Below, one piece after another: positions 287-61,236 of a stretch of DNA of 64,000 nt (its first letter is position 1; the number at the start of each line of letters is the position of its first letter). The stretch covers positions 536,858,001 to 536,922,000 of the forward strand of contig NC_091287.1 in assembly GCF_032444005.1 (NCBI RefSeq). Direction: 5' to 3'. Made by a program: the position numbers and the translations under genes. The DNA is from Ranitomeya imitator (taxonomy: Eukaryota). The notes under the pieces were generated by a model. It was not told where the DNA came from, ran no database searches, and saw nothing but the letters and a program-made list of their open reading frames with translations.

Positions 287-326
287 GATCTTTTATTATA
301 AAAATGAAAACCATAACAATAATAAT

Positions 327-3263
327 ACCCCGGCCCCCCATGTTATAGCCAGTCAAACCTCCCAATTGCTACACCCAGAAACCCCTCTAACCTTATTAAT
401 ATTCCCTGCATGCCTTCTGTCTCTTTGAATTGTGCCCTTTGGAATTCTCGCTTTGTGTGTAATAAACTCTCCTTCATTCATGACTTCTTCCTTTCTAATT
501 CTCTTAATCTCCTGGCTCTTACTGAAACCTGGATCCAGCAGTCAGACACCACTGCTGCTGCTGCTCTTTCATATGGTGCACTACACTTTTCTCATACCCC
601 AAGATCGGACAACAGAGCAGGTGGAGGCGTTGGTCTGCTCCTTTCACCCAAATGTACTTTCCAAGTTATCCCCCAAGTACCCTCACTTGTCTTCCCTTCC
701 TTTGAGGTCCATGTGGTCAGACTCTACGTCCCCTTCTCCATGCGAGTGGTGGTGGTGTATCGTCCTCCCGGCCCCTCTCATCAGTTCCTGGATCACTTTG
801 CCACCTGGCTTCCACACTTTCTTTCCTGTGACACCCCCACCCTTATCATGGGTGATTTCAACATCCCTATTGCCTCTCCCCTCTCCCCATCTGCTTCTCA
901 CCTTTTGGCTCTAACCTCCTCTTTCGGCCTCTCGCAGCATACTAACTCGCCAACACATGAAGATGGAAACTCCCTTGACTTGGTCTTCTCCCGGCTTTGC
1001 TCAGTGGATGATTTCACAAACTCCCCTCTCCCACTCTCTGACCACCACCTTCTTTCATTCTCTATCAAGAACTGCCATCCCGCTCAGGTCACCCCCACTT
1101 TCCACACTTATAGAAACATACAGGCCATTAACACCCAGGAACTTATGAAGAACTTGCAGTCCTCATTGGCCCCAATCTCCTCCATCTCATGTCCTGATTC
1201 TGCTCTGAAGCATTACAATGAAACCCTGCAAAGTGCCCTGGATGAAGCTGCTCCTCCTATACATAAAACAACTCGGCACAGACGGCAACAACCGTGGCAC
1301 ACGCTGCAAACACGTTTCCTGCAGCGGTGCTCCAGGTGCGCAGAACGTCTGTGGAGAAAATCTAATCTACCCGAAGATTTCATCCATTATAAGTTCATGC
1401 TAAAGACATACAATTCTGCCCTTCACCTCTCCAAACAAACCTACTTCAACACCCTCATCACCTCCCTGTCCAATAACCCTAAACGTCTCTTTGACACGTT
1501 CCAGTCCCTACTCAACCCAAGAGCGCAGGCCCCAACCACGGATCTCCGTGCTGACAATCTGGCCAATTACTTCAAAGAAAAAATTGACCATATTCGACAG
1601 GAAATCATCTCCCAATCTCTTCATACCATGCACTGTCCTCCCTCCCCCACTGCATCTAGTTCACTCTCTGACTTTGAACCAGTTACAGAAGAAGAAGTAA
1701 GCAGGCTCCTTGCATCTTCTCGCCCGACCACTTGCACCAGTGACCCCATTCCGTCACATTTCCTCCAGTCCCTTTCCCCGGCTGTCACCTCTCACCTAAC
1801 AAAAATATTCAACCTTTCCCTCACTTCCGGTATTTTTCCCTCCTCATTTAAGCATGCCATCATACATCCATTACTTAAAAAACCATCCCTCGACCAAAAC
1901 TGTGCCGCTAATTATAGACCTGTCTCTAATCTTCCCTTCATCTCTAAACTCCTCGAACGCCTGGTCCACTCCCGTCTTACCCGCTATCTCTCAGATAACT
2001 CTCTTCTCGACCCTCTTCAATCTGGTTTCCGCTCTTTACACTCTACTGAAACTGCCCTCACTAAAGTCTCTAATGACCTACTAACAGCTAAATCTAATGG
2101 TCACTACTCCATGCTAATTCTCTTGGATCTCTCTGCAGCATTTGATACTGTGGATCATCAGCTCCTCCTCACTATGCTCCGCTCCATCGGCCTCAAGGAC
2201 ACCGTTCTCTCCTGGTTCTCCTCCTATCTCTCTGACCGATCCTTCACTGTATGTTTCGCTGGTTCCTCCTCCTCTCACCTTCCCCTTACTGTTGGGGTTC
2301 CTCAAGGATCAGTCCTAGGCCCCCTCCTCTTCTCTTTGTATACTGCCCCTATTGGACAAACAATCAGTAGATTTGGCTTCCAGTACCATCTCTATGCTGA
2401 CGACACCCAACTATACACTTCTTCTCCTGATCTCACGCCTGCCTTATTAGAAAACACCAGTGATTGTCTTACCGCTGTCTCTAGCATCATGTCCTCCCTC
2501 TATCTGAAACTAAACCTGTCAAAAACTGAACTCCTCGTGTTTTCTCCCTCTACTAACCTACCTTTGCCTGACATTGCCATCTCCGTTTGCGGTTCCACCA
2601 TTACTCCAAAGCAACATGCCCGCTGCCTTGGGGTCATCCTTGATTCTGACCTTTCATTCACCCCCCACATCCGATCACTGGCTCGCTCTTCTTACCTGCA
2701 TCTCAAAAACATTTCTAGAATTCGCCCTTTTCTTACTTTCGACTCTGCAAAAACTCTTACTGTTTCACTTATTCATTCTCGTCTGGACTATTGTAACTCT
2801 CTACTAATCGGCCTCCCTCTTACCAAACTCTCCCCGCTCCAATCTGTCCTGAATGCTGCTGCCAGGATCATATTCCTCACCAACCGTTACACCGATGCCT
2901 CTACCTTGTGCCAGTCATTACACTGGTTACCCATCCACTCAAGAATCCAGTACAAAACTACTACCCTCATCCACAAAGCACTCCATGGCTCAGCACCACC
3001 CTACATCTCCTCTCTGGTCTCAGTCTACCACCCTACCCGTGCCCTCCGCTCCGCTGATGACCTCAGGTTAGCATCCTCAATAATCAGAACCTCCCACTCC
3101 CGTCTCCAAGACTTTACACGTGCTGCGCCGATTCTTTGGAATGCACTACCTAGGATAATACGATTAATCCCCAATCCCCACAGTTTTAAGCGTGCCCTAA
3201 AAACTCATTTGTTCAGACTGGCCTACCGCCTCAATGCATTAACCTAACGATCCCTGTGTGGCC

Positions 3264-3294
<31 letters not shown>

Positions 3295-4039: not shown

Positions 4040-7000
4040 TTACACATCACTAAAAGAAAAGCCCCTCCAGAGGAGAGCGGCCCTCCGTGCGCCCAGTCTC
4101 CCATACTCCAGAGAGTGCACCTTCACCAGGTCACCGAGTATGGTCCTAAACACATCGTCCACTGGGAGGATTTTTCGTTGCGTCGATACTAAGCACCGTG
4201 CGTTCCACGTGTGATACCTAACCACTGTGCTAACTAGAAATAAGGTGCAGCGGTACTGACCACCAAGGTCTCCGAATGCTCCATAGGCTCATTCCGCATA
4301 GGAGAGACCAGCCAGCCGAGACCAGCAAATGAAGGCGCCCACCCTGTTGTACACCTCTGTATTGAAGGGACAATGAAGCAGGAAGTGGTCCATGCTTTCC
4401 AGCAAGGTACCACAATGCTCCCGAGGACAAATTCTGTCCTCAGAGCTCCTACACTTCAGATTGTTCCTCACACACAGTTTCCCATGGAAGCAGCGCCAAG
4501 ACAAGTCCCAAAACTTCGAGGGGATCCTGATAGAATTCAAAAGATGCAAACCCACCCCAAGATCCCGACTTGGGCAGTCACTGAGCGCCAGAGACCTCTG
4601 GAAATGGGTCAACAGAACCCTATTGTCAAGGAGTTTCCTTGGCAGAGTCCTGATCTCCCACATTCCCAGACCCCACCTACGAATTACCTTCAGAACCAAG
4701 GTAGCGTAAGCCGGAAGATGTCCATGCGGTGTGCGAAGATCCTTCACTTGCCCTCCTGTCTCCCATTCCTGGAAGAAAGGCTGAAACCATCCCCTACAGG
4801 AGAATACCCACGGAGGAGCCCTCTCTTTCCAGAGATTTGCAATATCGATCTTAATGAAGGTATCCACAAGGAATACCACAGGGTTGACCATACCCAACCC
4901 TCCTAGTCTTGTCGTACGGTAAGTAACCTCCCTCTTGACCAGGTTCAGTCTATTCCCCCATAACAGTTGGAAGAACAAACTGTAGACCCGAGTCCAGAGA
5001 GATTCTGGCAAGATGCACACACTGCCCAGATAAATCAGTAAAGGGAGCAGGTAATTTTGATCAGGTTTACCCTTTCTCTTAGGGTCAAAGACCAACCCTT
5101 CCATTGGTTCACCTTCTAAGTGGCGATCTCTAGCCTGCTGCCCCAATTTTGTTTGGGGTAATCCCCTTGGCCAAATTCGATGCCAAGGACTTTTGCAGAA
5201 ACTTTGGGTCCTGGAAGGGTGTCCGGGAGATCAAAACCAGGATCTCCTCCTCCCAGCCAGAGACTCTCACACTTATCCCGGTTGATCTTGGACCCGGATG
5301 CCTCCGAGTAGTGATCTACCTCTGACATCAGCCACCCTGCCTCCTTGTGAGAGGAAATAAACACAGTGACATTGGCATACGCCACCTGTTATGGACCTGG
5401 TGGTTAGGAGCACCCGGAACGACCTGATGGTTAAACTCACACAGGACAAGCTCTGGGAAGTAGGAACTCTGCTGACCGCAACCCCTAATCCTATCACACA
5501 ACTAGAAATAGCCGTGGGGCGTACCTAACTCGGCCTAGACGCCTCTTCACAGCCTAAGAGCTAACTAGCCCTAGAAATAGAAAATAAAGCCTACCTTGCG
5601 TCAGAGAAATTCCCCAAAGGAAAAGCAGCCCCCCACATATATTGACTGTGAGTTAAGATGAAGTCACAAACACAGAAATGAAACAGGTTTCAGCAAAGGG
5701 AGGCCAGACTTACTAAACAGACTGAGGATAGAAAAGGTATCTTTGCGGTCAGCACAAAAAAATACAAAAAGACCACGCAGAGTGTGCAAAAAGACCTCCG
5801 CATCGACTCACGGTGCGGAGGTGCCACTCTGCATCCCAGAGCTTCTAGCTAGCAAGGCAAAATCATGATAGCAAGCTGGACAAGAAAACAATGAACAAAT
5901 AATTAACTAGCTTCTGCTGGAGTAGACAGGTCACCAGAAAGATCCAAGAGCGAACTGAACCAGTACAAGAACATTGACAGCTGGCATGGAGTAACGATCT
6001 AAGTGGAGTTAAATAGAGCAGCCAGCCAAAGAATAAACTCCGTCACCTGTGGAAGAAACCTCAGAAGCAGCAGCTCCACTCACAGCCACCAGAGGGAGTC
6101 CATGGACAGAACTCGCCGAAGTACCATTCATGACCACAGGAGGAAGTTCGATAACAGAATTCACAACAGCCACCACCCTCAGAGTGGTGCTGCCTGGTCC
6201 ATCCCGATCCTGGCCAACGGTCCACGCTCCACCCTCCTAAGAAGAGGGTCAATCGCAAACACGTACAGCAGCGGGCTCAAGGGAAAACCCTGGCGAACAC
6301 CGGACCCAACCTCAAAAGAGCTGCCACTCCAACCATTTACAAGCAGGAAACTCTCTGCACCACTGTACAAGGTCTTAAGCCAATCAACAAACCCCCCTGG
6401 CAGGCCATATCTCAGAAGGATGGCACAGATGTACTCGTGATTAACCGAATCAAACGCTTTTGCCTGGTCCAGTGACAGCATGTACCCTTTCCATTGACCA
6501 GCCCTACCCTGCTCCGCTGCCTCTCGGACACAGAGCACAGCACTAAATGTGCTACGGCCTGGAACAGAGCAATGCTGGGCCTCCGAAAGGAGTCGGAGTG
6601 AAAATTTCACCAGCCAATTAAACAGCACCTTTGCCAGAACCTTCCTGTCTGCATTGAGAAGCGCTATGGGACGCCAATTCTCAATGCAAGATGGGTCCTT
6701 ACCCTTTGACAAGATGATCAGAGCAGACCTGCTCATTGACTTCAGCAGAGTGTCCGAGGAAAGACACTCATTGAATACCTCAGTCAAGAGGGGAACAAAA
6801 ACGTCCTTAAAGGTCTTATAGAATTCAGATTTTAAGCCATCTGGACCAGGCAATTTTTTTTGGGCAAGCCCTTCAATCGCCAACTGAACTTCCTCTTCCC
6901 TGATCATTTCTGTCAAAACATCAAGAGAGGGGTCTACCCCTGGTTTGGGGACAGCTTCAGCCAGGAAAGCCGACATCTCATCCCAATCAAGATCCCTCTT

Positions 7001-7995
7001 CCCCAAGAGGTGCGAGTAGAAGGATCTGACAACCTCCAGGATCCCTGATCTGGATCGCCTCAGGGACCCCGTAGTGTCGACCAGTCCTGTAACTACTTTA
7101 CTATTCACTGACATCTTGCAGTTTCTGTAAGGGTCGGGTGAGCGGTACTTCCCGTAATCCCTCTTAAAAACCAAAGATGCATGTCTATTGTACGGACACC
7201 TCATAAGCAAAGGACTGTCTTATCTCCGCTTCTTCCAAGAGAGACGAATTGAGCCTCCAAAAGCCTCTTCCCATCCGGAGGGTCTCTAACATTCCGAGAA
7301 AACAAAATTAAACAGTGGTCGGAGAATTCCACCTCAACAACAGACACTGCTGAAGAGACAGCTTCCTCCTTTAAATAAAACCTATCTATCCTAGACCTAC
7401 AATTACCTCTATGATAGGTGAACCCCTCGTGGCCTGGGGTGTGCCGAATGTGGACATGCACCAGGCGAGCCTCACTAGCTATACTATTAAGGGCGACGCT
7501 ATCATAAGTCAGCTTGTCTCTGGAACCTCCTCTATCTCGGTGCCTCGTGACAGCATTGAAATCCCCTCTAAAGACAACATGCCAACTTGTAAAAAGGTAG
7601 GGCTTGATCCTCATAAAGAGACACTTGCGGTCCCACTTAGATTGGGGACCATAGATGTTGATGAGCGGGAGCTCTTGTCCCTTCATGAGGACATCTAAGA
7701 TCAGGCACCTCCCCATTTCTAACTCAATAACCCGTCGGTATTCCACCGGTGCGGTAAAAAGGACCGCCATTCCACTATACGGCTCGGCTGAAAGAGTCCA
7801 ATAGGAGGGCCTGAGTCTCCACTCCCTCTTAGCTTTAAACACATCTGCCATGTTTGGCAGCCTGGTCTCTTGCAAAAAGAAAATGTCAGCTTCAACCTGG
7901 CTGAGAAAATCAAAGGCCGCAAACCTAGCTGTATTTGACTTTATGCTGGTGACATTAATGGATGCCAGCGTCAACGGAGTGGGATCCGCCATCAT
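4040..7995 (-). pseudogene. Tx1-clade ORF2 (endonuclease-RT), frameshifted and split by a solo LTR
   Basis: Fragments: 7201-7995 (SINV, LQET, GDFN, IDRFY, SDH), 6179-7210 (PGPDG, WRPIALLN, LDQAKAFD, GVRQG.PLSP), 5116-5385, 4289-5146 (C..CG.LLESMDHFLLHC) and 4040-4225. The catalytic YADD motif reads YAN-. Confidence 0.92.
5387..6168 (-). mobile_element. Solo LTR (782 bp), probably Gypsy-like
   Basis: TGTT...AACA termini; gccacc duplicated at 5381-5386 and 6169-6174. Removing the insert restores the RT frame LRVVAY. Strand is tentative, from a TATA-like ctatttaa on the minus strand. Confidence 0.85.
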
Positions 7996-9630
7996 TGGTG
8001 ATCGAGTTAGATGACTTTCTTTTTCCCACTCCCCTTATCCTCTGCCTCAGAGGAGGAATCCTTCCCCCTCTTTAATGATAATGAGGTATCCATTCCCACG
8101 TGTTTTTTATTTTTATCGTCCTCGTCTCCGGACTCTGGGCCAGTCCCTCCGTCCAAGGATCTTACATTCCCAGAAGAAGGAGACTCGGCGTCCTCTGTGA
8201 GCCTGGCTGAAGCCAGAACCTCACCCTCAGCTTCCTCCTCAGAGGAAGAGATGTTTTCAAGGGCCTGGAACCGGTTAGAATGCCCAACCAGAGGGGAGTC
8301 GGTTTTTCCTTCCTTAGATACGTTGGTCAGAGCAGGAGAAGATTTTTTATCTCCCTTCTTTCTCTTCTTTTTGGTGCTGAGCTTACGCTTGTCCTCTAGC
8401 CACTGCCTATTATCCTCATCCATACTTTCATAATGGGAGGACTCTGAGGCAGTGGCACTTTCCTCCCTGTGGATCCTCCTGACCTCCTCATCCAACTCAT
8501 CATCCCTCGGTGCCTCAGCAGCAAGACTGGCATCCAGAACAGGGCCGCCCCAGTAGCCCGAGGCTCGCCCAGCTCCCTATCCTCTCTGCGCTTGTCTAGA
8601 CGCCTTAGCTGGGCAGGCGTCTTTTTATTGCTTTTCTTCCTTGGCCCCTCCGCTCCCTCACCCCTGCTAGTCCCTTCCCCAGCAGAATCAGCGTCACGGC
8701 TTTCTCCCAGTGGGGTCATGACTGCATTAGCGAAGGAGCGAGGACAACAGCTGAATGGGTGACCTAACTCACCCCACAGGTGGCACCTAATCTCCACACA
8801 AAATGCAGCAAGATGGCCAATATCCCCACACAATGCACATTTCTGCACAGTGCAGTTTGTGCTGAAGTGTGTGGGGTCACCGCACTTGTGACAGAGCTTC
8901 GGTTGCCCCTGGTAGAAGACCAAGATACGATCCCTACCCAGGAAGACAGATGATGGTATGTGGGCAACCGTACCACCTGAACGCTTAAGTTTTACCACAA
9001 ACGTCCAGGCCCCTGACCAGATACCAAACTCGTCACGGTTTTTCTTTGGCATTTCTACCACCTCTCCATACCAGCCAAGCCACGTCATGATGTCATAACA
9101 AGAAAGCGACTCGTTACAAGTCATCACGGTCACTTTCTTGACTTGGTTTTGGCGAGACACCACCTAAATGGAAAAGTCTCGCCAGCCAGGCTCATTTTTT
9201 GCCAACTCATAGTTCAACCAGAAGAGCTCAAGCCCCTCTGGACGAACAAAGCTGACATCAAACTCAGGTGTGGACTAGGGATGTATGAAGGCATAGATGT
9301 CAATCGCCCTGAAGCCCATCCTCAGCAGGAGCTCCACAACTTTAGACCTTGGAGGACACGCATCACTGCCCCTCCACCGAAGATGGACCACATTCCTACG
9401 CACACTACCCGGCCCGGCTGTTGGCAGGGACCACACTGTATCCCCCCCTCTTTGCTCTCGGAAGGCCCCAAGGCCATGCCTCTCTATCCAGAAGGATAGA
9501 TCAACCTCTCGACCCTCTACCATTAGTGATCTCTCTCCCTTCTTTAGAGCCTCCAGGAGACGCCGTTGCAACATGCCATCCCCAGAGCCCAGAGACGAGG
9601 AGGATGCCCTATTTCCCCCGGAGGTGACAG

Positions 9631-9704
9631 TAGCAAAACTCCTGACAGGTGCTTATACCACTGGGGGGGGGGGGCAACCGGACCAGTGACTACATCCACA
9701 CCAA
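9631..9704 (+). repeat. Left copy of the 74-bp target-site duplication flanking the ribozyme array
   Basis: tagcaaaactcctgacagg...catccacaccaa recurs at 11306-11384; the only visible difference is G-run length (12 vs 17). Confidence 0.95.
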
Positions 9705-9937
9705 AGGCCTGGCTATTCACTGCTTGCGTCGAGAAACACGTGATGGTGTCTCCGCAGCTTCTTTTCTTGCATCTGCATATTTCCCATAAGGGATGGGGGC
9801 AGTGTTCTGGAATCACTGCGTTGAGAAACACGTGATGGTGTCTCCGCGGTGTTGGATGTTTTGGTCTCCCCGAGGCCAATCATCTGTGCCTTTATAGCCT
9901 TTTTACTAGGCACTGCTCCTAATAGCCAGATTCCTAC

Positions 9938-9981
9938 TCCACACTGATGAGGGGCAAAACCCCGAAACAGCTGTCTGTGGA
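9938..9981 (+). ncRNA. Type I hammerhead ribozyme, copy 1
   Basis: Stem I UCCACA(9938-43)/UGUGGA(9976-81); core CUGAUGA(9944-50); stem II GGGG-CAAAA-CCCC(9951-63); GAAA(9964-67); palindromic stem III ACAGCUGU(9967-74); GUC triplet with predicted cleavage 3' of 9975. Confidence 0.92.
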
Positions 9982-10289
9982 TGGATACCATGCTTGGCAT
10001 AGGTGGCTTTCCTTCATAGGATGCTGCCCTTCCCGTGGTTGTTCCTTCCCGGGGAAAGGCCTGGCTATTCACTGCTTGCGTCGAGAAACACGTGATGGTG
10101 TCTCCGCAGCTTCTTTTCTTGCATCTGCATATTTCCCATAAGGGATGGGGGCAGGGTTCTGGAATCACTGCGTTGAGAAACACGTGATGGTGTCTCCGCG
10201 GTGTTGGATGTTTTGGTCTCCCCGAGGCCAATCATCTGTGCCTTTATAGCCTTTTTACTAGGCACTGCTCCTAATAGCCAGATTCCTAC

Positions 10290-10333
10290 TCCACACTGAT
10301 GAGGGGCAAAACCCCGAAACAGCTGTCTGTGGA
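10290..10333 (+). ncRNA. Type I hammerhead ribozyme, copy 2
   Basis: Identical to copy 1, shifted +352; predicted cleavage 3' of 10327. Confidence 0.92.
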
Positions 10334-10641
10334 TGGATACCATGCTTGGCATAGGTGGCTTTCCTTCATAGGATGCTGCCCTTCCCGTGGTTGTTCCTTC
10401 CCGGGGAAAGGCCTGGCTATTCACTGCTTGCGTCGAGAAACACGTGATGGTGTCTCCGCAGCTTCTTTTCTTGCATCTGCATATTTCCCATAAGGGATGG
10501 GGGCAGTGTTCTGGAATCACTGCGTTGAGAAACACGTGATGGTGTCTCCGCGGTGTTGGATGTTTTGGTCTCCCCGAGGCCAATCATCTGTGCCTTTATA
10601 GCCTTTTTACTAGGCACTGCTCCTAATAGCCAGATTCCTAC

Positions 10642-10685
10642 TCCACACTGATGAGGGGCAAAACCCCGAAACAGCTGTCTGTGGA
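10642..10685 (+). ncRNA. Type I hammerhead ribozyme, copy 3
   Basis: Identical to copy 1, shifted +704; predicted cleavage 3' of 10679. Confidence 0.92.
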
Positions 10686-10993
10686 TGGATACCATGCTTG
10701 GCATAGGTGGCTTTCCTTCATAGGATGCTGCCCTTCCCGTGGTTGTTCCTTCCCGGGGAAAGGCCTGGCTATTCACTGCTTGCGTCGAGAAACACGTGAT
10801 GGTGTCTCCGCAGCTTCTTTTCTTGCATCTGCATATTTCCCATAAGGGATGGGGGCAGTGTTCTGGAATCACTGCGTTGAGAAACACGTGATGGTGTCTC
10901 CGCGGTGTTGGATGTTTTGGTCTCCCCGAGGCCAATCATCTGTGCCTTTATAGCCTTTTTACTAGGCACTGCTCCTAATAGCCAGATTCCTAC

Positions 10994-11037
10994 TCCACAC
11001 TGATGAGGGGCAAAACCCCGAAACAGCTGTCTGTGGA
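10994..11037 (+). ncRNA. Type I hammerhead ribozyme, copy 4
   Basis: Identical to copy 1, shifted +1056; predicted cleavage 3' of 11031. Confidence 0.92.
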
Positions 11038-11305
11038 TGGATACCATGCTTGGCATAGGTGGCTTTCCTTCATAGGATGCTGCCCTTCCCGTGGTTGTTC
11101 CTTCCCGGGGAAAGGCCTGGCTATCCACTGCTTGCGTCGAGAAACACGTGATGGTGTCTCCGCAGCTTCTTTTCTTGCATCTGCATATTTCCCATAAGGG
11201 ATGGGGGCAGTGTTCTGGAATCACTGCGTTGAGAAACACGTGATGGTGTCTCCGCGGTGTTGGATGTTTTGGTCTCCCCGAGGCCAATCATCTGTGCCTT
11301 TATAG

Positions 11306-11384
11306 TAGCAAAACTCCTGACAGGTGCTTATACCACTGGGGGGGGGGGGGGGGGCAACCGGACCAGTGACTACATCCACACCAA
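11306..11384 (+). repeat. Right copy of the target-site duplication
   Basis: Duplicate of 9631-9704; Tx1 ORF1 sequence resumes at 11385. Confidence 0.95.
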
Positions 11385-13190
11385 CAGCATCACTATTACC
11401 CACCTTCATAACCCCCTCACCCTCTACCAAACCAGCAACCACACCACTAGACAAAGAATTTTCCTCATCCATACCCACCATCACATTCACTCCTGCTGGA
11501 CCAGTGACAACAGGGGGTGATATTATGACCTCTGCATCATCAGGCACAAGGGGCTGAGTCTCCTCCACAGAACTGGAGGTGACCTCACCCCTGGTCTTAC
11601 GTGTGCCCTCCGCATCATCAGATATTTTCCGCTGCTTTACTGTTGATACCAGGTGCCGCTGATATTTTGCTGCTGTGGGACGCCGCTGATTCTTTATATC
11701 AGCATCTTGTTGACCAGCGGCACCAACACAGAACAGGACTTTGGTGGGAGGACCGGAACTCCCAGCCCCAGCAACCCCCTCACACTGCCGCCGCTTCTCA
11801 ACTAAGTGATCAGCGGCAACAGCATTCAGGGGCACCGAGGCTAACGGAGCTGCCCCCGACACCGGGTCGCTCCCCTCTCCCACTGAGGAGCGCACCACAG
11901 TATCGTGGCCTGACCTTTTGCCCGCCACCGGGTTGCCCTCACTGTCCAGCATTTCGGCTGATGCACCTGTTGCTACGTCCCTGCTACTACAAGCAGAGAC
12001 GGAGCTCTGCGCCTCATTACATTGCTTTGTAATCTCCCCGCGCCTTTGCACTGGATCCACAGCAGAACCCGGGCCAGGCTGGGTAACGGGGCTTATACAG
12101 CGAACTGATCCTGCAGCCGACTCAGGGGGTACAGGGAAGGGGGCATGTACATAGCTTACCGCTTCCTGCAGCTTAGGTTTGATCTTCTTTACATTTTTCT
12201 TCTGGCCCCCAGGTGCCTCCTCTGGTAAATCATCACCAAGATGGAAGTTCTGAAGGCACACAGGGGACTCCAGCAGCTTGATCTCTGCCATTAGCGCCCC
12301 TCCCTGGCCGCTGTTGTCACTGTCCTCCCCAGAGCCAGCAGAACTGCGCTTGTCCCGCAGGAAGCTTGCTGCACGTGGCCTGTGAGTGACTAAGCAGGCT
12401 GCCAGATGGGGCTTTCTGCTGGTCATCATCCTGCTCATCATCATCCACCTGGCACTCAGGCTGCAGCCCCATCTGCCTTTGCTCTCTGTTATCAGCCATT
12501 TCTCTGAATCGATCTTCATTAATACGTTTTTCCTTAAACGATCCACTTTTTTCTCTGATGAAAGCTTTTCTGACTTCAAGCTCATTGATGTCAAATTTCA
12601 GTCTCCTTACCTCCGCCTGGAGCTGATTCTTCCTCGGTTTGGAGGAATCTGCAGCTTTGTTGCTTGTGCAGCGCAACTCCTCCCGGAGCCTCCTCAGGGT
12701 CTTACTAGCTTGTTCATACTCACGGAGATGGCTCATGACACGGGAGGCATAGGTGGTCACAGACTCCCGGGGTCTCTGCAGCGCCCAACCCTCCTCAGTG
12801 AGGTCGGCCTCACCTCCGTGAGCACTCAGCTTTCCTCCGGAAGGACCGCCGTCTTGCACGCTAGCAGGCTTCTCCTCCATGGAAGCCTTGCGGCTGCTCT
12901 GGGTCTCTGCAGACCTGGGGGGAGTAGGAGCCACATTGCTGCGACTCCTGGTGGAGCGTCTCACCCCCGAATCCTCTGAAGTGCAGGCTGGTTCCTTCTG
13001 CCCCCCGCCAGCCAGGTCTGGGAAGCAGAAGCCTGGGACTTGGCTCCTTCACTCATCCCAGGAAACCCACTCCCTCCCTGTTTAAGAGAGAGAGCAGGTC
13101 CCCGGGTGGAGAGATGGTTCCCAGGAGCTCAGGAGCACACTGCAGGTTCAGCAGCGACCGCACCCACAATCAACACAATGAGCAGTAGCT

Positions 13191-13994
13191 GAGCTGCACT
13201 CACTACTCTGAAGGTGCAGTCACTGTGTATATACATTACATTACTGATCCAGTACTGATCCTGAGTTACATCCTGTATTATACTCCAGAGCTGCACTCAC
13301 TACTCTGAAGGTGCAGTCACTGTGTACATACATTACTGATCCAGTACTGATCCTGAGTTACATCCTGTATTATACTCCAGAGCTGCACTCACTATTCTGC
13401 TGGTGCAGACACTGTGTACCTACATTACATTACTTATCCTGAGTTACATCCTGTATTATAATCCAGAGCTGCACTCACTATTCTGCTGGTGCAGTCACTG
13501 TGTACATACATTACATTACTTATCCTGAGTTACATCCTGTATTATACTCCAGAGCTGCACTCACTATTCTGCTGGTAGAGTCACTGTGTACATACATTAC
13601 ATTACTTATCCTGAGTTACATCCTGTATTATCCTCCAGCGCTGCACTCACTATTCTGCTGGTGCAGTCACTGTGTACATACATTACATTACTGATCCTGA
13701 GTTATATCCTGTATTATTCTCCAGAGCTGCACTCACTATTCTGCTGGTGCAGACACTGTGTACATACATTACATTACTGATCCTGAGTTATATCCTGTAT
13801 TATTCTCCAGAGCTGCACTCACTATTCTGCTGGTGCAGTCACTGTGTACATACATTACATTACTGATCCTGAGTTACATCCTGTATTATACTCCAGAGCT
13901 GCACTCACTATTCTGCTGGTAGAGTCATTGTGTACCTACCTTACATTACTTATCCTGAGTTACATCCTGTATTATACTCCAGAGCTGCACTCAC
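13191..13994 (+). repeat. 86-bp satellite array, continuation of 1-286 after the Tx1 insertion
   Basis: About 9 monomers, same orientation as 1-286. Confidence 0.95.
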
Positions 13995-14900: not shown

Positions 14901-15563
14901 TAATGGATGGATGTGCTAAATATGGCCCCATTCAGTCGTCCATTTTTCGTGTACGATAATATCCTTACCTGTGATAGTCTATGGGGCCATACACAAGTAT
15001 GTGATTTTTTGTAAACCAAGTGGTCCGCATAAAGTTTAGGAGTCTTGTCTGATTTGGATCAAAAATGGTAAGGTAATTCTACGGGTCTGGGAAAAATATC
15101 TTTAAACTTTTTATTAAAGAGACACTTTTGTACTAAAAAATAAAAAAATTGTCAAAAAATTATCCACTAATTTAATGTTTTTTTAAATGGAATTTAGAAG
15201 GTAAGTGCTGGCAAAGTAGATACTGGGTATAGCATAATGGATGGATTTGCTGAATATGGCCGCATTGTCGTCCATTTTTCGTGTACGATAATATCCTTAC
15301 CTGTGATAGTCTATGGGGCCATACACAAGTATGTGATTTTTTTGCAAACCAAGTGGTCCGCTTAAAGTTTAGGAGTCTTGCCTGATTTGGACCAAAAATG
15401 GTAAGGTAATTCTAGGTCTGGGAAAAAATATCTTTAAACTTTTTATTAAAGAGACACTTTCGTACTAAAAAATAAAAAAATGTCTAAAAATTATCCACTG
15501 ATTTAATGTTTTTTTAAAATGGAATTTAGAAGGTAAGTGCTGTCAAAGTAGATACTGGGTATA
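14901..15563. repeat. Two-copy tandem duplication, about 334-bp period
   Basis: taatggatgg...gatactgggtata at 14901 and again at 15235, with scattered substitutions. Confidence 0.85.
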
Positions 15564-16785: not shown

Positions 16786-18408
16786 CAGTTAGGGCCAGAA
16801 ATATTTGGACAGTCACACAATTTTCGCGAGTTGGGCTCTGCATGCCACCACATTGGATTTGAAATGAAACCTCTACAACAGAATTCAAGTGCAGATTGTA
16901 ACGTTTAATTTGAAGGGTTGAACAAAAATATCTGATAGAAAATGTAGGAATTGTACACATTTCTTTACAAACACTCCACGTTTTAGGAGGTCAAAAGTAA
17001 TTGGACAAATTAACATAACCCAAACAAAATATTTTTATTTTCAATATTTTGTTGCAAATCCTTTGGAGGCAATCACTGCCTTAAGTCTGGAACCCATGGA
17101 CATCACCAAACGCTGGGTTTCCTCCTTCTTAATGCTTTGCCAGGCCTTTACAGCCGCAGCCTTCAGGTCTTGCTTGTTTGTGGGTCTTTCCGTCTTAAGT
17201 CTGGATTTGAGCAAGTGAAATGCATGCTCAATTGGGTTTAGATCTGGAGATTGACTTGGCCATTGCAGAATGTTCCACTTTTTGGCACTCATGGGGTCAT
17301 TGTCCATCTGTACTATGAAGCGCCGTCCAATCAACTTTGCAGCATTTGGCTGAATCTGGGCTGAAAGTATATCCCGGTACACTTCAGAATTCATCCGGCT
17401 ACTCTTGTCTGCTCTTATGTCATCAATAAACACAAGTGACCCAGTGCCATTGAATGCCATGCATGCCCATGCCATCACGTTGCCTCCACCATGTTTTACA
17501 GAGGATGTGGTGTGCCTTGGATCATGTGCCGTTCCCTTTCTTCTCCAAACTTTTTTCTTCCCATCATTCTGGTACAGGTTGATCTTTGTCTCATCTGTCC
17601 ATAGAATACTTTTCCAGAACTGAGCTGGCTTCTTGAGGTGTTTTTCTGCAAATTTAACTCTGGCCTGTCTATTTTTGGTATTGATGAATGGTTTGCATCT
17701 AGATGTGAACCCTTTGTATTTACTGTCATGGAGTCTTCTCTTTACTGTTGACTTAGAGACAGATACACCTACTTCACTGAGAGTGTTCTGGACTTCAGTT
17801 GATGTTGTGAACGGGTTCTTCTTCACCAAATTAAGTATGCGGCGATCATCCACCACTGTTGTCATCCGTGGACGCCCAGGCCTTTTTGAGTTCCCAAGCT
17901 CACCAGTCAATTCCTTTTTTCTCAGAATGTACCCAACTGTTGATTTTGCTACTCCAAGCATGTCTGCTATCTCTCTGATGGATTTTTTCTTTTTTTTCAG
18001 CCTCAGGATGTTCTGCTTCACCTCAATTGAGAGTTCCTTTGACCGCATGTTGTCTGCTCACAGCAACAGCTTCCAAATGCAAAACCACACACCTGGAATC
18101 CACCCCTGACCTTTTAACTACTTCATTGATTACAGGTTAACGAGGGAGACGCCTTCAGAGTTAATTGCAGCCCTTAGAGTCCATTGTCCAATTACTTTTG
18201 GTCCCTTGAAAAAGAGGACGCTATGCATTACAGAGCTATGATTCCTAAACCCTTTCTCCGATTTGGATGTGGAAACTATCATATTGCAGCTGGGAGTGTG
18301 CACTTTCAGCCCATATTAAATATATAATTTTATTTCTGAACATGTTTTTGTAAACAGCTAAAATAACAAAACTTGTGTCACTGTCCAAATATTTCTGGCC
18401 CTAACTGT
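16786..18408 (-). mobile_element. Tc1/mariner DNA transposon (1623 bp)
   Basis: TIRs CAGTTAGGGCCAGAAATATTTGGACAGT; TA TSD at 16784-85 and 18409-10; internal inverted sites caaaagtaattggaca / tgtccaattacttttg. Confidence 0.95.
17041..18048 (-). CDS. Tc1 transposase, open frame of 335 aa with an apparent 10-aa deletion in the catalytic domain (probably inactive)
   Basis: HTH region, GRPR, WTDETK, KHGGG.VM.W, MDNDP and WPSQSPDLNPIE; 24 residues between the second D and the E instead of 34. Confidence 0.85.
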   Translation of the reverse strand: MRSKELSIEVKQNILRLKKKKKSIREIADMLGVAKSTVGYILRKKELTGELGNSKRPGRPRMTTVVDDRRILNLVKKNPFTTSTEVQNTLSEVGVSVSKSTVKRRLHDSKYKGFTSRCKPFINTKNRQARVKFAEKHLKKPAQFWKSILWTDETKINLYQNDGKKKVWRRKGTAHDPRHTTSSVKHGGGNVMAWACMAFNGTGSLVFIDDIRADKSSRMNSEVYRDILSAQIQPNAAKLIGRRFIVQMDNDPMSAKKWNILQWPSQSPDLNPIEHAFHLLKSRLKTERPTNKQDLKAAAVKAWQSIKKEETQRLVMSMGSRLKAVIASKGFATKY

Positions 18409-37218: not shown

Positions 37219-40200
37219 TGTATTAAACTCCAGAGCTGTACTCACTATTCTGCTGGTGCAGTCACTGTGTACATACATTACATTACTGATCCTGAGTTAC
37301 ATCCTGTATTACATCCCAGAGCTGCACTCACTATTCTGCTGGTGCAGTCACTGTGTACATACATTACATTACTGATCCTGAGTTACATCCTGTATTACAC
37401 CCCAGAGCTGCACTCACTATTCTGCTGGTGCAGTCACTGTGTACATACATTACATTACTGATCCTGAGTTACATCCTGTATTACACTCCAGAGCTGCACT
37501 CACTATTCTGCTGGTGCAATCACTGTGTACATACATTACATTACTGATCCTGAGTTACATCCTGTATTATACCCCAGAGCTGCACTCACTATTCTGCTGG
37601 TGCAATCACTGTGTACATACATTACATTACTGATCCTGAGTTACATCCTGTATTATACCCCAGAGCTGCACTCACTATTCTGCTGGTGGAGTCACTGTGT
37701 ACATACATTACATTACTGATTCTGAGTTACATCCTGTATTATACCCCAGAGCTGCACTCACTATTCTGCTGGTGCAGTCACTGTGTACATACATAACATT
37801 ACTGATCCTGTACTGATCCTGAGTTACATCCTGTACTATATTCCAGAGCTGCACTCACTATTCTGCTGGTGCAGTCACTGTGTACATACATTACATTACT
37901 GATCCTGTACTGATCCTGAGTTACATCCTGTATTATACTCCAGAGCTGCACTCACTATTCTGCTGGTGCAGTCACTGTGTACATACATTACATTACTGAT
38001 CCTAAGTTACATCCTGTATTATACCCCAGAGCTGCACTCACTATTCTGCTGGTGCAGTCACTGTGTGCATACATTACATTACTGATCCTGAGTTACATCC
38101 TGTATTATACTCCAGAGCTGCACTCACTATTCTGCTGGTGCAGTCACTGTGTACATACATTACATTACTGATCCTGAGTTACATCATGTATTATGCTCCA
38201 GAGCTGCACTCACTATTCTGCTGGTGCAGTCACTGTGTACATACATTACATTACTGATCCTGAGTTACATCCTGTATTATACTCCAGAGCTGCACTCACT
38301 ATTCTGCTGGTGCAGTCACTGTGTACATACATTACATTACTGATCCTGAGTTACATCCTGTATTATACCCCAGAGCTGCACTCACTATTCTGCTGGTGGT
38401 CACTGTGTACATACATTACATTACTGATTCTGAGTTACATCCTGTATTATACCCCAGAGCTGCACTCACTATTCTGCTGGTGCAGTCACTGTGTACATAC
38501 ATAACATTACTGATCCTGTACTGATCCTGAGTTACATCCTGTACTATATTCCAGAGCTGCACTCACTATTCTGCTGGTGCAGTCACTGTGTACATGCATT
38601 ACATTACTGATCCTGTACTGATCCTGAGTTACATCCTGTATTATACTCCAGAGCTGCACTCACTATTCTGCTGGTGCAGTCACTGTGTACATACATTACA
38701 TTACTGATCCTGAGTTACATCCTGTATTATACTCCAGAGCTGCACTCACTATTCTGCTGGTGCAGTCACTGTGTACATACATTACATTACTGATCCTGAG
38801 TTACATCCTGTATTATACTCCAGAGCTGCACTCACTATTCTGCTGGTGCAGTCACTGTGTACATACATTACATTACTGATCCTGCACTGATCCTGAGTTA
38901 CATCCTGTACTATATTCCAGAGCTGCACTCACTATTCTGCTGGTGCAGTCACTGTGTACATACATTACATTACTGATCCTGTACTGATCCTGAGTTACAT
39001 CCTGTATTATACTCCAGAGCTGCACTCACTATTCTGCTGGTGCAGTCACTGTGTACATACATTACATTACTGATCCTAAGTTACATCCTGTATTATACCC
39101 CAGAGCTGCACTCACTATTCTGCTGGTGCAGTCACTGTGTGCATACATTACATTACTGATCCTGAGTTACATCCTGTATTATACTCCAGAGCTGCACTCA
39201 CTATTCTGCTGGTGCAGTCACTGTGTACATACATTACATTACTGATCCTGAGTTACATCCTGTATTATACTCCAGAGCTGCACTCACTATTCTGCTGGTG
39301 CAGTCACTGTGTACATACATTACATTACTGATCCTGAGTTACATCATGTATTATGCTCCAGAGCTGCACTCACTATTCTGCTGGTGCAGTCACTGTGTAC
39401 ATACATTACATTACTGATCCTGTACTGATCCTGAGTTACATCCTGTATTATACTCCAGAGCTGCACTCACTATTCTGCTGGTGCAGTCACTGTGTACATA
39501 CATTACATTACTGATCCTAAGTTACATCCTGTATTATACCCCAGAGCTGCACTCACTATTCTGCTGGTGCAGTCACTGTGTGCATACATTACATTACTGA
39601 TCCTGAGTTACATCCTGTATTATACTCCAGAGCTGCACTCACTATTCTGCTGGTGCAGTCACTGTGTACATACATTACATTACTGATCCTGAGTTACATC
39701 CTGTATTATACTCCAGAGCTGCACTCACTATTCTGCTGGTGCAGTCACTGTGTACATACATTACATTACTGATCCTGAGTTACATCATGTATTATGCTCC
39801 AGAGCTGCACTCACTATTCTGCTGGTGCAGTCACTGTGTACATACATTACATTACTGATCCTGAGTTACATCCTGTATTATACTCCAGAGCTGCACTCAC
39901 TATTCTGCTGGTGCAGTCACTGTGTACATACATTACATTACTGATCCTGAGTTACATCCTGTATTATACCCCAGAGCTGCACTCACTATTCTGCTGGTGG
40001 TCACTGTGTACATACATTACATTACTGATTCTGAGTTACATCCTGTATTATACCCCAGAGCTGCACTCACTATTCTGCTGGTGCAGTCACTGTGTACATA
40101 CATAACATTACTGATCCTGTACTGATCCTGAGTTACATCCTGTACTATATTCCAGAGCTGCGCTCACTATTCTGCTGGTGCAGTCACTGTGTACATGCAT

Positions 40201-41666
40201 TACATTACTGATCCTGTACTGATCCTGAGTTACATCCTGTATTATACTCCAGAGCTGCACTCACTATTCTGCTGGTGCAGTCACTGTGTACATACATTAC
40301 ATTACTGATCCTGAGTTACATCCTGTATTATACTCCAGAGCTGCACTCACTATTCTGCTGGTGCAGTCACTGTGTACATACATTACATTACTGATCCTGA
40401 GTTACATCCTGTATTATACTCCAGAGCTGCACTCACTATTCTGCTGGTGCAGTCATTGTGTACATACATTACATTACTGATCCTGCACTGATCCTGAGTT
40501 ACATCCTGTACTATATTCCAGAGCTGCACTCACTATTCTGCTGGTGCAGTCACTGTGTACATACATTACATTACTGATCCTGTACTGATCCTGAGTTACA
40601 TCCTGTATTATACTCCAGAGCTGCACTCACTATTCTGCTGGTGCAGTCACTGTGTACATACATTACATTACTGATCCTAAGTTACATCCTGTATTATACC
40701 CCAGAGCTGCACTCACTATTCTGCTGGTGCAGTCACTGTGTGCATACATTACATTACTGATCCTGAGTTACATCCTGTATTATACTCCAGAGCTGCACTC
40801 ACTATTCTGCTGGTGCAGTCACTGTGTACATACATTACATTACTGATCCTGAGTTACATCCTGTATTATACTCCAGAGCTGCACTCACTATTCTGCTGGT
40901 GCAGTCACTGTGTACATACATTACATTACTGATCCTGAGTTACATCATGTATTATGCTCCAGAGCTGCACTCACTATTCTGCTGGTGCAGTCACTGTGTA
41001 CATACATTACATTACTGATCCTGAGTTACATCCTGTATTATACTCCAGAGCTGCACTCACTATTCTGCTGGTGCAGTCACTGTGTACATACATTACATTA
41101 CTGATCCTGAGTTACATCATGTATTATACTCCAGAGCTGCACTCACTATTCTACTGGTGCAGTCACTGTGTACATACATTACATTACTGATCCTAAGTTA
41201 CATCCTGTATTATACCCCAGAGCTGCACTCACTATTCTGCTGGTGCAGTCACTGTGTGCATACATTACATTACTGATCCTGAGTTACATCCTGTATTATA
41301 CTCCAGAGCTGCACTCACTATTCTGCTGGTGCAGTCACTGTGTACATACATTACATTACTGATCCTGAGTTACATCCTGTATTATACTCCAGAGCTGCAC
41401 TCACTATTCTGCTGGTGCAGTCACTGTGTACATACATTACATTACTGATCCTGAGTTACATCCTGTATTATACTCCAGAGCTGCACTCACTATTCTGCTG
41501 GTGCAGTCACTGTGTGCATACATTACATTACTGATCCTGTACTTATCCTGAGTTACATCTTGTATTATACTACAGAGCTGCACTCACTATTCTGCTGCTT
41601 GTGGAGTGACTGTACATACATTGCATTACTTATCCTATACTGATCCTGAATTATATACTGTATTAT
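37219..41666 (+). repeat. 86-bp satellite array (about 50 monomers) with a 1601-bp higher-order repeat; remnant continues at 42341-42470
   Basis: Diagnostic monomer variants recur at +1601 (38149/39750, 38321/39922, 38685/40286, 39051/40652). Confidence 0.95.
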
Positions 41667-57500: not shown

Positions 57501-57723
57501 GTGGCTTCTTCTAGCCACTAGGCTAGAAGCTTGTGCTAGAGAACCATTTATCTGACAAGTAGTGGGAGGTCTGCGGTAAATACTGTACATCATAAGAGAC
57601 ACTGAGATTGCTGTATACATCACATAAGAGACACCAGGACTGCTGTATACATCAATAAGAGACATCAGGACTGCTATATACTGTATATATACATCCCATA
57701 GGAGAAGCTGAAATTGATGTATG

Positions 57724-58906
57724 GCAAGCACAGATTGAGACCGCGCATAAGGGATAGAGTAAGATGGCTGAATACCAACTAAGAAGACATATGATGGAAA
57801 AACAAAAACCCTCGGAAGCCGTGGATACCTAAAATCAATAAATACCCTAGACAGTAAAGTCGCGACACAAAATCCAATGGAACAGGACAGCTGGTATATG
57901 CTGGTATAAGAGCAGTGCTATTAAAATGGTCCCATCAGGATGGGTGGTAAACGTACCTGTAGTCCGTGCTTATGTACATGAGAGGCCGCGGGTATACTGT
58001 GTGGGTATGAAGGTACGCAGCCGGGGTCCGGACACTACGGTGCCGGATGCAAGGTGGAATGTAGAGCTGTCAAATGGAGTGTCCGGCGTCAGGTGAGTAG
58101 ATGAAACAGTGGGTCAGCAAGTGTGGAGGTGCGCCGCACAGAGTGCAGCAGAGGGCTACGCAGAGCCAGGGAAAGCCCCGGCCGGTGGCGTCCCTGGATA
58201 TGAGCGCAAAAGATGGCCGACAAAGAACTTAGCGTGTGACGTCACAGCTGGGGAACTACGGAGCGGCACTGGGACAAGGTTGTACCAACGCGTTTCGAAG
58301 GAACAGCGTCCTTCTTCGTCAGGGTTACCCGCCCCATTAACTCCGAAGATTATAAACTAGTCCTCTGTCAATCACCCCAAGGAGACCCGCCCATCCACTC
58401 AATACAACGAGAAGACTAATACATACTCACAATGGTAACCCTTAGTATGACTACCAGAAAATGAAGCAGTGGCTACTAGAAGTGTATTATGTGTCACAGA
58501 GCAGAACTTTACAGCAAATGTGCTAAAAATGCTAAAAAAGGGGTAATTACCAAATAACAAATGGCAGTTGTAGAAAATAATGAAACTGTATCTAAAAAGT
58601 ACATAAAAAAGGAGCATGCATATATGAAGGAAAAAAAATATATATATACATGCAGGGGAAAGACCCCGACTGCGATTTTACTGTCTAGGATATTTATTGA
58701 TTTTAGGTATCCACGGCTTCCGAGGGTTTTTGTTTTTCCATCATATGTCTTCTTAGTTGGTATTCAGCCATCTTACTCTATCCCTTATGCGCGGTCTCAA
58801 TCTGTGCTTGCCATTTTTCTTTGATTCAGGTCTGACGTCCACCTGTCTTTGATTCCAGCAGCTAAGGGTATTGTTCTTGTGATTTAGCGCTAGTGTATCT
58901 ATTATA
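57724..58906 (-). mobile_element. Penelope-like (PLE) pLTR-type non-coding insertion with a terminal inversion
   Basis: 16-bp TSD ctgaaattgatgtatg at 57708-23 and 58907-22; 143-bp inverted repeat at 57721-57863 and 58672-58814; minimal hammerhead on the minus strand. Confidence 0.78.
58284..58325 (-). ncRNA. Minimal type I hammerhead ribozyme (Penelope-type)
   Basis: Minus strand ACC-CUGACGA-A-GAAGGA-CGCUGU-UCCUUC-GAAA-CGCG-U-U-GGU; palindromic stem III ACGCGU; predicted cleavage between 58287 and 58286. Confidence 0.8.
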
Positions 58907-59558
58907 CTGAAATTGATGTATGTACATCACATAAGAGAAACCGAGACTGCTGTATATACATCATATTGGAAACAATAAGACTGCTGTATACATCAAATAT
59001 GAGACAAAGAGAATGCTGTATATACATCACATAGGTGACACTGGAGCAGAGAGCTAGCAGTGCATTCTCTGGGAATATGCCAGGCCAGAATTTTACCACC
59101 CCTGGGCTTGAGGAACTGTCAGAAAAATGTGAAACACTGTCACGTCCTGCTAGACTCCTGCCACATAGTTCTTGGCACCTATCTATATATTTGCTATAAA
59201 AAAAACGAGACAAATGTGTTGGTGCGTGCTGCTCTCTACTTTATGCTGCTCTTCATGTGATAACTTTGGAATATAATTAACAACACTGTTCAACAACGAC
59301 CTTTAATGAGATCTGTGGAGCTGTCCAGGTTCTGAAATGCATGAAAACGCTGAATGCAATAAATCTTTTCCAAGATTTGTCCCTCTCAAAAAATCAACAC
59401 TGAAAAGGATTAACCTTCACATTGTTTATTCGTCGTCAGTGGTCAAGTTTGATTAACTTTCTGGGTACTGAAATAAATAGGAGCAAGATGAATGTAACAA
59501 TTCTTATCCCAACAGTGTCCTTCTCACAAAGCCACGTAAGAAGTGGATTAAACAGATT

Positions 59559-61236
59559 GAATAGTGAGTGCAGCTCTGAAGCATGATACAAAATTAAACT
59601 CCAGATCAGTACAGTATAAGGAATGTATGTACACAGTGACTGCACTAGCAGAATAATGAGTGCAGCTCTGGGGTATAATACAGGATGTAACTCAGGATCA
59701 GTAATGTAATGTATGTACACAGTGACTGCACCAGCAGAATAGTGAGTGCAGCTCTGGGGTATAATACAGGATGTAACTCAGGATCAGTAATGTAATGAAT
59801 GTACACAGTGACTGCACCAGCAGAATAGTGAGTGCAGCTCTGGAGTATAATACAGGATGTAACTCGGGATCAGTAATGTAATGTATGTACACAGTGACTG
59901 CACCAGCAGAATAGTGAGTGCAGCTCTGGGGTATAATACAGGATGTAACTCAGGATCAGTAATGTAATGTATGTACACAGTGACTGCTCCAGCAGAATAG
60001 TGAGTGCAGCTCTGGACTCTAATACAGGATGTAACTCAGGATCAGTAATGTAATATATGTACAAAGTGACTGCTCCAGCAGAATAGTGAGTGCAGCTCTG
60101 GACTATAATACAGGATGTAACTCAGGATCAGTAATGTAATGTGTGTACACAGTGACTGCACCAGCAGAATAGTGAGTGCAGCTCCGGGGTATAATACAGG
60201 ATGTAACTCAGGATCAATACAGGATCAGTAATGTAATGCATGTATACAGTGACTGCACCAGCAGAATAGTGAGTGCAGCTCTTGAGTATAATACAGGATG
60301 TAACTCAGGATCAGTAATGTAATGTGTGTACACAGTGACTGCACCAGCAGAATAGTGAGTGCAGCTCCGGGGTATAATACAGGATGTAACTCAGGATCAA
60401 TACAGGATCAGTAATGTAATGCATGTATACAGTGACTGCACCAGCAGAATAGTGAGTGCAGCTCTTGAGTATAATACAGGATGTAACTCAGGATCAGTAA
60501 TGTAATGTTGTACACAGTGACTGCACCAGCAGAATAGTGAGTGCAGCTCCGGGGTATAATGCAGGATGTAACTCAGGATCAATACAGGATCAGTAATGTA
60601 ATGCATGTATACAGTGACTGCACCAGCAGAATCGTGAGTGCAGCTCTTGAGTATAATACAGGATGTAACTCAGGATCAGTAATGTATGTACACAGTGACT
60701 GCACCAGCAGAATAGTGAGTGCAGCTCCGGGGTATAATACAGGATGTAACTCAGGATCAATACAGGATCAGTAATGTGATGCATGTATACAGTGACTGCA
60801 TCAGCAGAATAGTGAGTGCAGCACTGGAGTATAAGGGTATGTGCACACGTATAGAGCTCCTCTGTGGATTTTTCCACAGCGGATTTGATAAATCCGCAGG
60901 GGAAAAACGCTGTGGTTTTTACTGCGGATTTATCGCGTTTTCTACTGCGGATTCCGCTGTGGATTTACATCTGCAGTTTTCTATTGGAGCAGATGTAAAA
61001 ACGCTGCGGATTCCGCACAAAGAATTGACATGCTGCGGAAAATAAAATGCTACGTTTCCGCGCGTTTTTTTCCTGCAGCATGGGCACAGCGTTTTCGGTT
61101 TCCCATAGGTTTACATTGTACTGTAAACTCATGGGAAACTGCTGCGGACCCGCAGCTGGGGAAACGCTGCGGAGCCGTAGCAAAATCCGCAACGTGTGCA
61201 CATACCCTAATACAGGATGTAACTCAGGATCAGTAA
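59559..61236 (-). repeat. 86-bp satellite array in opposite orientation to the other arrays
   Basis: Reverse-complement monomers (gaatagtgagtgcagctctggagtataatacaggatgtaactcaggatcagtaatg). Confidence 0.95.
60835..61207. mobile_element. PIF/Harbinger-type MITE (373 bp) inserted in the satellite
   Basis: TIR GGGTATGTGCACACGT; TAA TSD at 60832-34 and 61208-10. Confidence 0.92.

Follow-up and report, generated by a model that had tools for sequence, protein, structure and literature searches.

The array at positions 9703–11305 (plus strand) of the window, which is the whole 64,000-nt stretch of Ranitomeya imitator DNA analysed here, is very probably a retrozyme inserted as a copy of an RNA (probability of about 0.93). 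Several elements can be read directly from the locus: a tandem array of 352-bp units, a hammerhead ribozyme motif repeated along it, a target-site duplication around it, the descent of its units from a single founding unit, and an uninterrupted passage across the predicted ribozyme cut site. As for the template, we give about even odds that it was a circular RNA and that most of the units were made at insertion.

The array, its ribozyme motifs and its target site

The array was delimited by a period search and by stacking of its units. TRF reports a period of 352 at 9703–11305, with 4.6 copies, 99% matches and zero indels; the span 9705–11305 measures 1601 bp, or 4.548 units, and is made of a partial unit covering phase 80–352 (9703–9975), full units at 9976–10327, 10328–10679 and 10680–11031, and a last partial unit covering phase 1–274 (11032–11305), all on the plus strand. 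Exactly two columns vary in the stack, both singletons (G at 10155 in unit 2 and C at 11125 in the last partial unit), and the figures of the preliminary description (1601 bp, 4.55 units, two substitutions) hold. Its statement that neither end is a ribozyme cut was also borne out: the array starts at 9705, which is phase 82 (81 nt past the cut phase), and stops at 11305, which is phase 274 (274 nt after the last predicted cut, at 11031). One has to keep in mind that 2 nt at either end are common to the flank, so that the insert runs from 9703/9705 to 11303/11305 and its end phases are 80–82 on the left and 272–274 on the right. The four cut-site junctions between units are all identical, with no letters gained or lost. 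We found no further copy of the 352-bp monomer within the 64-kb window, and no terminal inverted repeats at the array.

The layout is purely tandem and non-coding, with no LTR-internal-LTR arrangement; no frame on the plus strand reaches 100 aa, and the only repeated frame is a 172-aa stop-to-stop frame in antisense. Each unit contains a 31-nt hairpin module in two copies, at phase 102–132 and phase 194–224 (in unit 2, 10077–10107 and 10169–10199, plus strand), the second being identical to the first at 30 of 31 positions. Most of the length of this duplicated module carries no listed variants in the contigs that we compared, and it is possible that it acts as a protein-binding or promoter element.

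Four identical motifs, at 9938–9981, 10290–10333, 10642–10685 and 10994–11037 (plus strand), are putative type I hammerheads, with predicted cuts after 9975, 10327, 10679 and 11031, respectively. This assignment is based on the core motif and the stems, as Rfam returned no match in the window at the gathering score and none for 9700–10400 at E-values up to 5. Each motif comprises a 6-bp stem I, an intact core, a 4-bp G-C stem II with a 5-nt loop, and a stem III of 2 bp closed by a palindromic tetraloop. Across 101 distinct contexts of the same core in public contigs, 519 of 606 stem I cells are paired, through several kinds of base pair, whereas 500 shuffles, a control that ignores relatedness between contexts, reach 447 at most.

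The unit folds better than its shuffles (z of −3.7, 0/100 shuffles as good; z of −3.5 as a circle, 60 shuffles). Helix III is predicted at +2.4 kcal/mol when it forms a hairpin and at −11.1 kcal/mol when two copies pair into a duplex. In the circular monomer, the active hammerhead fold lies 5.3 kcal/mol above the minimum; given this weak hairpin and this unfavourable active fold, a 352-nt monomer circle should be stable. Amphibian type I hammerheads with a weak helix III are described as cleaving well only as dimers (PMC7229834; PMC4209133), and eight of the nine Xenopus dimers assayed in vitro in a recent preprint showed no cleavage (bioRxiv 10.64898/2026.07.22.740005). The pairing probabilities of the circular fold also point to a U-rich, largely unpaired segment at phase 263–282 (10942–10961 in unit 4, plus strand), which includes the end phase of the array, 272–274, and would be the start site of reverse transcription.

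Sequence comparison revealed two features that the preliminary description had missed, the host of the array (see below) and a direct repeat on its two sides, at 9629–9704 and 11304–11384. The two copies of this repeat agree at 64 of 64 positions once a G run is set aside, and we interpret them as a target-site duplication of 72–76 bp. The G run counts 12 letters on the left (9663–9674) and 17 on the right (11338–11354), a difference due to slippage or sequencing error; it is speculation that a G-rich structure bears on the long distance between nicks. Both copies carry two bases seldom found in the surrounding LINE family (9632 and 9636 on the left, 11307 and 11311 on the right); at 9632, contigs from other copies of this LINE depart from the window in 100% of the listed depth of run X1, and at 9636 in 95%. 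As both copies share these rare bases, the repeat was duplicated from the array's own locus and does not result from the joining of two LINE copies. The junctions and the unit number rest on the assembly of the window: no piece spans the left junction among the contig pieces listed (13,974 more lie outside the listing), and neither X1 nor X2 shows the window's base at 9632 in its listed depth.

The host is a fragmented LINE on the minus strand, with pieces within 4292–12597, recognized by domain matches of its ORF pieces, which we take to be L1/Tx1-like. Its ORF1 pieces match ZCCHC3-type RNA-binding domains and its ORF2 pieces match endonuclease, RT and zf-RVT domains; the array interrupts ORF1, in antisense orientation relative to the LINE, and Pfam gave no match for the ORF piece upstream of the array. 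This LINE copy shows six listed differences from its family majority in about 300 bp, against zero substitutions between the two copies of the duplication, from which we infer that the insertion of the array is much younger than the LINE.

Other repeats share the window. At 326–3294, an open frame of 973 aa contains endonuclease and RT domains and has a 25-nt A run behind it; it is apparently an ORF2, still intact, from a second LINE family. The minus strand at 17044–18057 holds an open 338-aa frame matching Tc1/mariner-type transposase domains. An 86-bp repeat, present on both strands, forms four arrays (1–286, 13253–13994, 37219–41636 and 59559–60834), the largest with 50 copies, and a two-copy 332-bp repeat at 14901–15563 contains no hammerhead under the pattern scan used.

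The family in public contigs and the phases of its ends

The 352-bp unit is present in 20 of the 24 listed sequencing runs, from 10 studies and under four organism labels, none of the runs that hold it being recorded as RNA. We aligned the contigs of four runs (three studies) to one unit plus the left flank, and period-352 head-to-tail joints were found in all four. Summed over contigs, the depth of the unit is roughly 530-fold that of the LINE flank; this depth ratio does not give a copy number, but there is clearly an abundance of the family in X1 and X2. In run X12, which bears another organism label, a 362-nt contig (record 9) covers the entire unit and joins back onto itself, with two differing letters and one gap, and the family thus appears nearly identical across organism labels. 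In run X8, one contig has loose letters behind 9976 and another a T run before 10019, each a single contig.

The family is polymorphic. The 20 listed variants that have a depth value in X1 lead one to expect about 4.2 differences per 352 nt between units, compared to about 1.0 within the array. The T at 9765 accounts for at most about 2% of the family depth in X1 and X2, yet it occurs in all five copies of the array; these are depth-weighted contig values and not true allele frequencies. The preliminary description had foreseen both a locus variant common to all units and a lower divergence within than between arrays. The array stems from one founding unit, and polishing towards a consensus is an unlikely source of its homogeneity, since such a rare T was kept in 5/5 copies.

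The claim of the preliminary description that the ends are arbitrary did not fare as well, as a preferred 3′ end, which that description had itself named as a refutation, is suggested indirectly by loose contig ends in the 352-bp family and by two other families; a circle read from a fixed start survives this change. In the aligned contigs, 33 loose ends in X1 and 29 in X2, two runs of one sample, lie behind position 9884. The order behind it is a patch of variants, then the last seven letters of the array (phase 268–274), then non-unit sequence that differs between the two runs. This consensus describes a variant subfamily of a single sample; the loose parts have median lengths of 14 and 12, the shared part is of 13 and the agreement of 0.64–0.65, and no loose end was recorded at 9897 itself among the 16 rows listed of 344.

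A hammerhead-pattern scan of metagenome and viral contigs retrieved at least 123 loci, each found through an intact core. Compared with the whole unit, these loci gave 34 BLAST matches, the longest of 52 nt, and the 25 longest of the 34 cover the hammerhead only. Judging from adjacent animal genes, their hosts are presumably invertebrate animals. We phased two of the eight listed families, families 1 and 3 (43 loci, with L039, L075 and L079 dropped as probable duplicates), which are hammerhead repeats with periods of 340–355 nt among L002–L123 and share only the ribozyme with the 352-bp unit. In family 1, 19 of the 27 usable 3′ ends fall at phase 89–121 and the other eight stop at 33–72 against the references used; for three loci of the family (L014, L040 and L118), pairwise comparison puts the 3′ end near +100. 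Twelve of the 13 usable 3′ ends of family 3 cluster as well, nine at 131–163 and three at 185–189, with the remaining one at 50. The two end sites of family 3, separated by about 40 nt, are reminiscent of the “tail” of Penelope elements. The 5′ ends, for their part, are scattered over phase 46–339 in family 1 (28 ends) and over phase 93–311 in family 3 (14 ends). Copies of 1.39–2.06 units cross the 3′ end site once and then end there on the next turn. The windows for the 3′ phases were picked after seeing the data, and the phased copies span 0.25–2.06 units in short-read assemblies that may collapse longer ones.

We therefore lean towards a preferred 3′ phase in the 352-bp family too, in which case probably only the 5′ end of the array is arbitrary. 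Such a preference would match internal initiation by a Penelope-like reverse transcriptase.

Template, enzyme and competing explanations

The fractional length of the array constrains its origin. Whole units can be gained or lost after insertion without changing the fractional part; hence, at least 1.55 units were inserted, from a template that was continuous over the cut site. A single pass over a cleaved linear monomer is thereby excluded, in agreement with the preliminary description, which had held that a self-cleaved linear monomer was insufficient. Its broader claim of rolling-circle reverse transcription stands in part: insertion as an RNA copy is likely, given the duplication and the known class of the element, but an uncleaved multimer predicts the same ends and the same homogeneity.

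Judging from related elements, the cycle would start with the transcription of parent arrays, in which neighbouring hammerheads would pair through their palindromic helix III and release 352-nt monomers, and a host ligase would close these monomers into circles. A Penelope-like protein with reverse transcriptase and endonuclease activities, acting in trans, would then nick ORF1 of the broken LINE, and the 3′ end of the target, with 2 nt of complementarity, would prime synthesis at the preferred, single-stranded internal site of the RNA, at a phase of about 274. The enzyme would circle one monomer about 4.5 times before stopping arbitrarily at phase 80–82, and a second nick 72–76 bp away may account for the long duplication, itself directly visible at the locus. 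This reading, with the start at the right end, a free stop at the left end and a duplication that spans the distance between nicks, follows the purified Anolis Penelope-like protein, which nicks both DNA strands and carries out reverse transcription from defined internal sites (PMC11167929). We prefer a circle as it accounts for the exact junctions, for several turns and for a single founding unit with no call for four uncut hammerheads, and as circles have been demonstrated for the 330- and 350-nt retrozymes of the axolotl, where they amount to about 50% (PMC7229834).

Even so, the array taken by itself does not separate the circle, at roughly one chance in two, from copying of an uncleaved multimer or from later expansion in DNA, to which we assign successively lower weights. 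The multimer would be a linear transcript of at least five units from a homogeneous parent array, used by the same enzyme from the same start site; we regard it as a doubtful explanation, albeit a serious one. In vitro, the Anolis protein does not need cleavage and takes unprocessed RNA as its main substrate, which we count against the circle, and no RNA-seq ends were found at the hammerhead cut of that element (PMC11167929). Multimeric RNAs are present in the axolotl too, with dimers and trimers accumulating (PMC7229834), helix III of our unit is weak, and homogeneity could simply be inherited from the parent array. Such a transcript would nonetheless have to keep at least four consecutive hammerheads uncut, although dimers are the efficient form in the axolotl and cleave well (PMC7229834), and all the parent units would have to carry an allele found at about 2% of depth, so that the question of homogeneity is only moved one step back.

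Unequal crossover or slippage in DNA could also have expanded a shorter insertion of at least 1.55 units, whether copied from a circle or from a multimer. Gains of whole units preserve both end phases and yield homogeneity, this route has been proposed for retrozyme arrays (bioRxiv 10.64898/2026.07.22.740005), and the invertebrate copies that we phased do not exceed the 2.06 units given above, with the same reservation about short reads. We nevertheless hold expansion to be unlikely: both substitutions are singletons and none is common to neighbouring units, and duplication copies free of substitutions indicate a young locus, even if a rapid expansion is compatible with either observation. Quite improbable, in our opinion, are jumps of the reverse transcriptase between identical linear monomers, or capture at the DNA level from an extrachromosomal circle or through break repair from a homogeneous array. 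The 2-nt microhomology at both ends and the atypically long duplication would suit repair, and template jumps have been invoked for rotifer Penelope elements; against this, the cut-site junctions are exact in four cases out of four, monomers drawn from a diverse family should give mixed variants, and DNA capture predicts no preferred 3′ phase. Lastly, an assembly or polishing artefact behind the homogeneity or the unit number is scarcely credible: the unbridged left junction and the base at 9632 absent from the listed X1 and X2 depth speak for it, but polishing to the family majority would have erased the T at 9765, and head-to-tail joints of period 352 recur in 4/4 runs from three studies.

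The length of the duplication counts against our best explanation, as 72–76 bp far exceeds both the 8–10 bp reported for rotifer Penelope elements and the values of at most 12 bp at the related hammerhead loci, where candidate duplications of 6–12 bp were found in 8/43 loci versus 2/43 shifted controls. An 18-nt repeat was seen at one of these loci (L062), and an 83-bp repeat at another (L020) was rejected as a second long target duplication, its copies being one 341-nt period apart and hence a tandem continuation. A more general reading is that this abundant, young family would record, locus by locus, how a Penelope-type reverse transcriptase rolls for several turns from a fixed, single-stranded start on 352-nt circles and can leave duplications of 70–80 bp; it is tentative, and we would not bet on it at present.

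Next to the related loci, none of the 22 upstream ORFs matched a reverse transcriptase or GIY-YIG domain of a partner enzyme. The window itself contains, at 57708–58922, a remnant that we label Penelope-type by inference. It has no long ORF, a minimal hammerhead on the minus strand (58322–58287), a 143-bp inverted repeat (57721–57863 and 58672–58814, 98.6% identity) and a 16-bp direct repeat (57708–57723 and 58907–58922). By eye, the unit and this remnant (57864–58906) seemed to have a recognition motif in common, but their similarity is not significant and the motif was rejected: equally high scores came from 113 of 300 shuffles and from 24 of 84 controls with real sequence.

Comparison with known systems

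As far as sequence can tell, the element has each feature expected of a non-LTR retrozyme: head-to-tail units of about 150–450 bp (here a 352-bp period and 4.55 units), two or more successive units that each hold a complete putative type I hammerhead (here four identical motifs), a non-coding body with no LTR-internal-LTR layout, and a dispersed, multicopy distribution with a target duplication of more than 4 bp (here 72–76 bp). An autonomous Penelope-like element was rejected, since the array has no ORF joining reverse transcriptase and GIY-YIG domains and the nearby reverse transcriptase belongs to the host LINE.

Both the class and the rolling-circle model are already in print, so that the locus by itself is a clean example and no discovery. 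A circular RNA template for more-than-unit reverse transcription was proposed in 2014 for Penelope-like elements (PMC4209133), and a route from circles to tandem cDNA in 2020 for animal retrozymes (Cervera and de la Pena, PMC7229834). Li, Clavereau and Pollet (2026, bioRxiv 10.64898/2026.07.22.740005) describe retrozymes in all seven amphibians sampled, link them to pLTRs and treat those of vertebrates as non-autonomous derivatives of Penelope-like elements, and they call the movement of animal retrozymes, as regards both the enzyme and the choice between circle and multimer, unresolved. In the literature that we searched, we found no analysis of end phases or of long duplications in animal retrozymes, although the supplements of PMC7229834 or of the preprint may hold one; the accessible text of a study on Rana tandem repeats (PMC12054243) does not mention hammerheads. 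As the family is young, abundant and polymorphic and its junctions are intact, a single long-read genome could answer the question of retrozyme movement, and the details that deserve the attention of specialists are the pattern of fixed start and free stop and the 72–76-bp duplication. If the fixed-start circle is true, a long-read catalogue of ends and variants would amount to a genomic proof of the rolling-circle route put forward between 2014 and 2020, and retrozyme mobility would be tied to the internal-initiation chemistry of Penelope-like enzymes.

Among metazoan non-LTR retrozymes, the closest resemblance is to the 330- and 350-bp families of the axolotl (PMC7229834), compared here by description only: non-coding tandem units of about 350 nt with one type I hammerhead each, no LTR, and a target duplication of more than 4 bp. 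The weak helix III with its palindromic tetraloop recalls HHR_Amex1 from the same study. The unit differs by its G+C content of 51.7%, against the <50% described, and by the length of its duplication, for which we found no value in PMC7229834; circles are known for the axolotl, whereas the R. imitator family is known here as DNA. With regard to the vertebrate retrozymes of the 2026 preprint, 352 bp is near the amphibian mean of 316 bp, and 4.55 units agree with the 75% of families that have at most seven units. Unlike the pLTR-linked retrozymes of that preprint, the 352-bp unit has no pLTR relative that we could find among the related loci or in the remnant of the window. For very long target duplications, precedents are reported in the rotifer R9 LINE (126 bp) and in Dualen (PMC9977147), which, unlike the array, are autonomous LINEs with other endonucleases.

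Penelope-like elements, as studied by Frangieh et al. (2024, PMC11167929) and Craig et al. (2021, PMC8557442), share with our array the hammerhead and insertions in partial tandem; their variable 5′ end and defined internal start may have counterparts in the array, and their non-autonomous relatives form multicopy head-to-tail insertions. The array differs from them in having no ORF and no inverted terminal copy and in its longer duplication. The element would behave like the cargo of a Penelope-like element, without being one itself.
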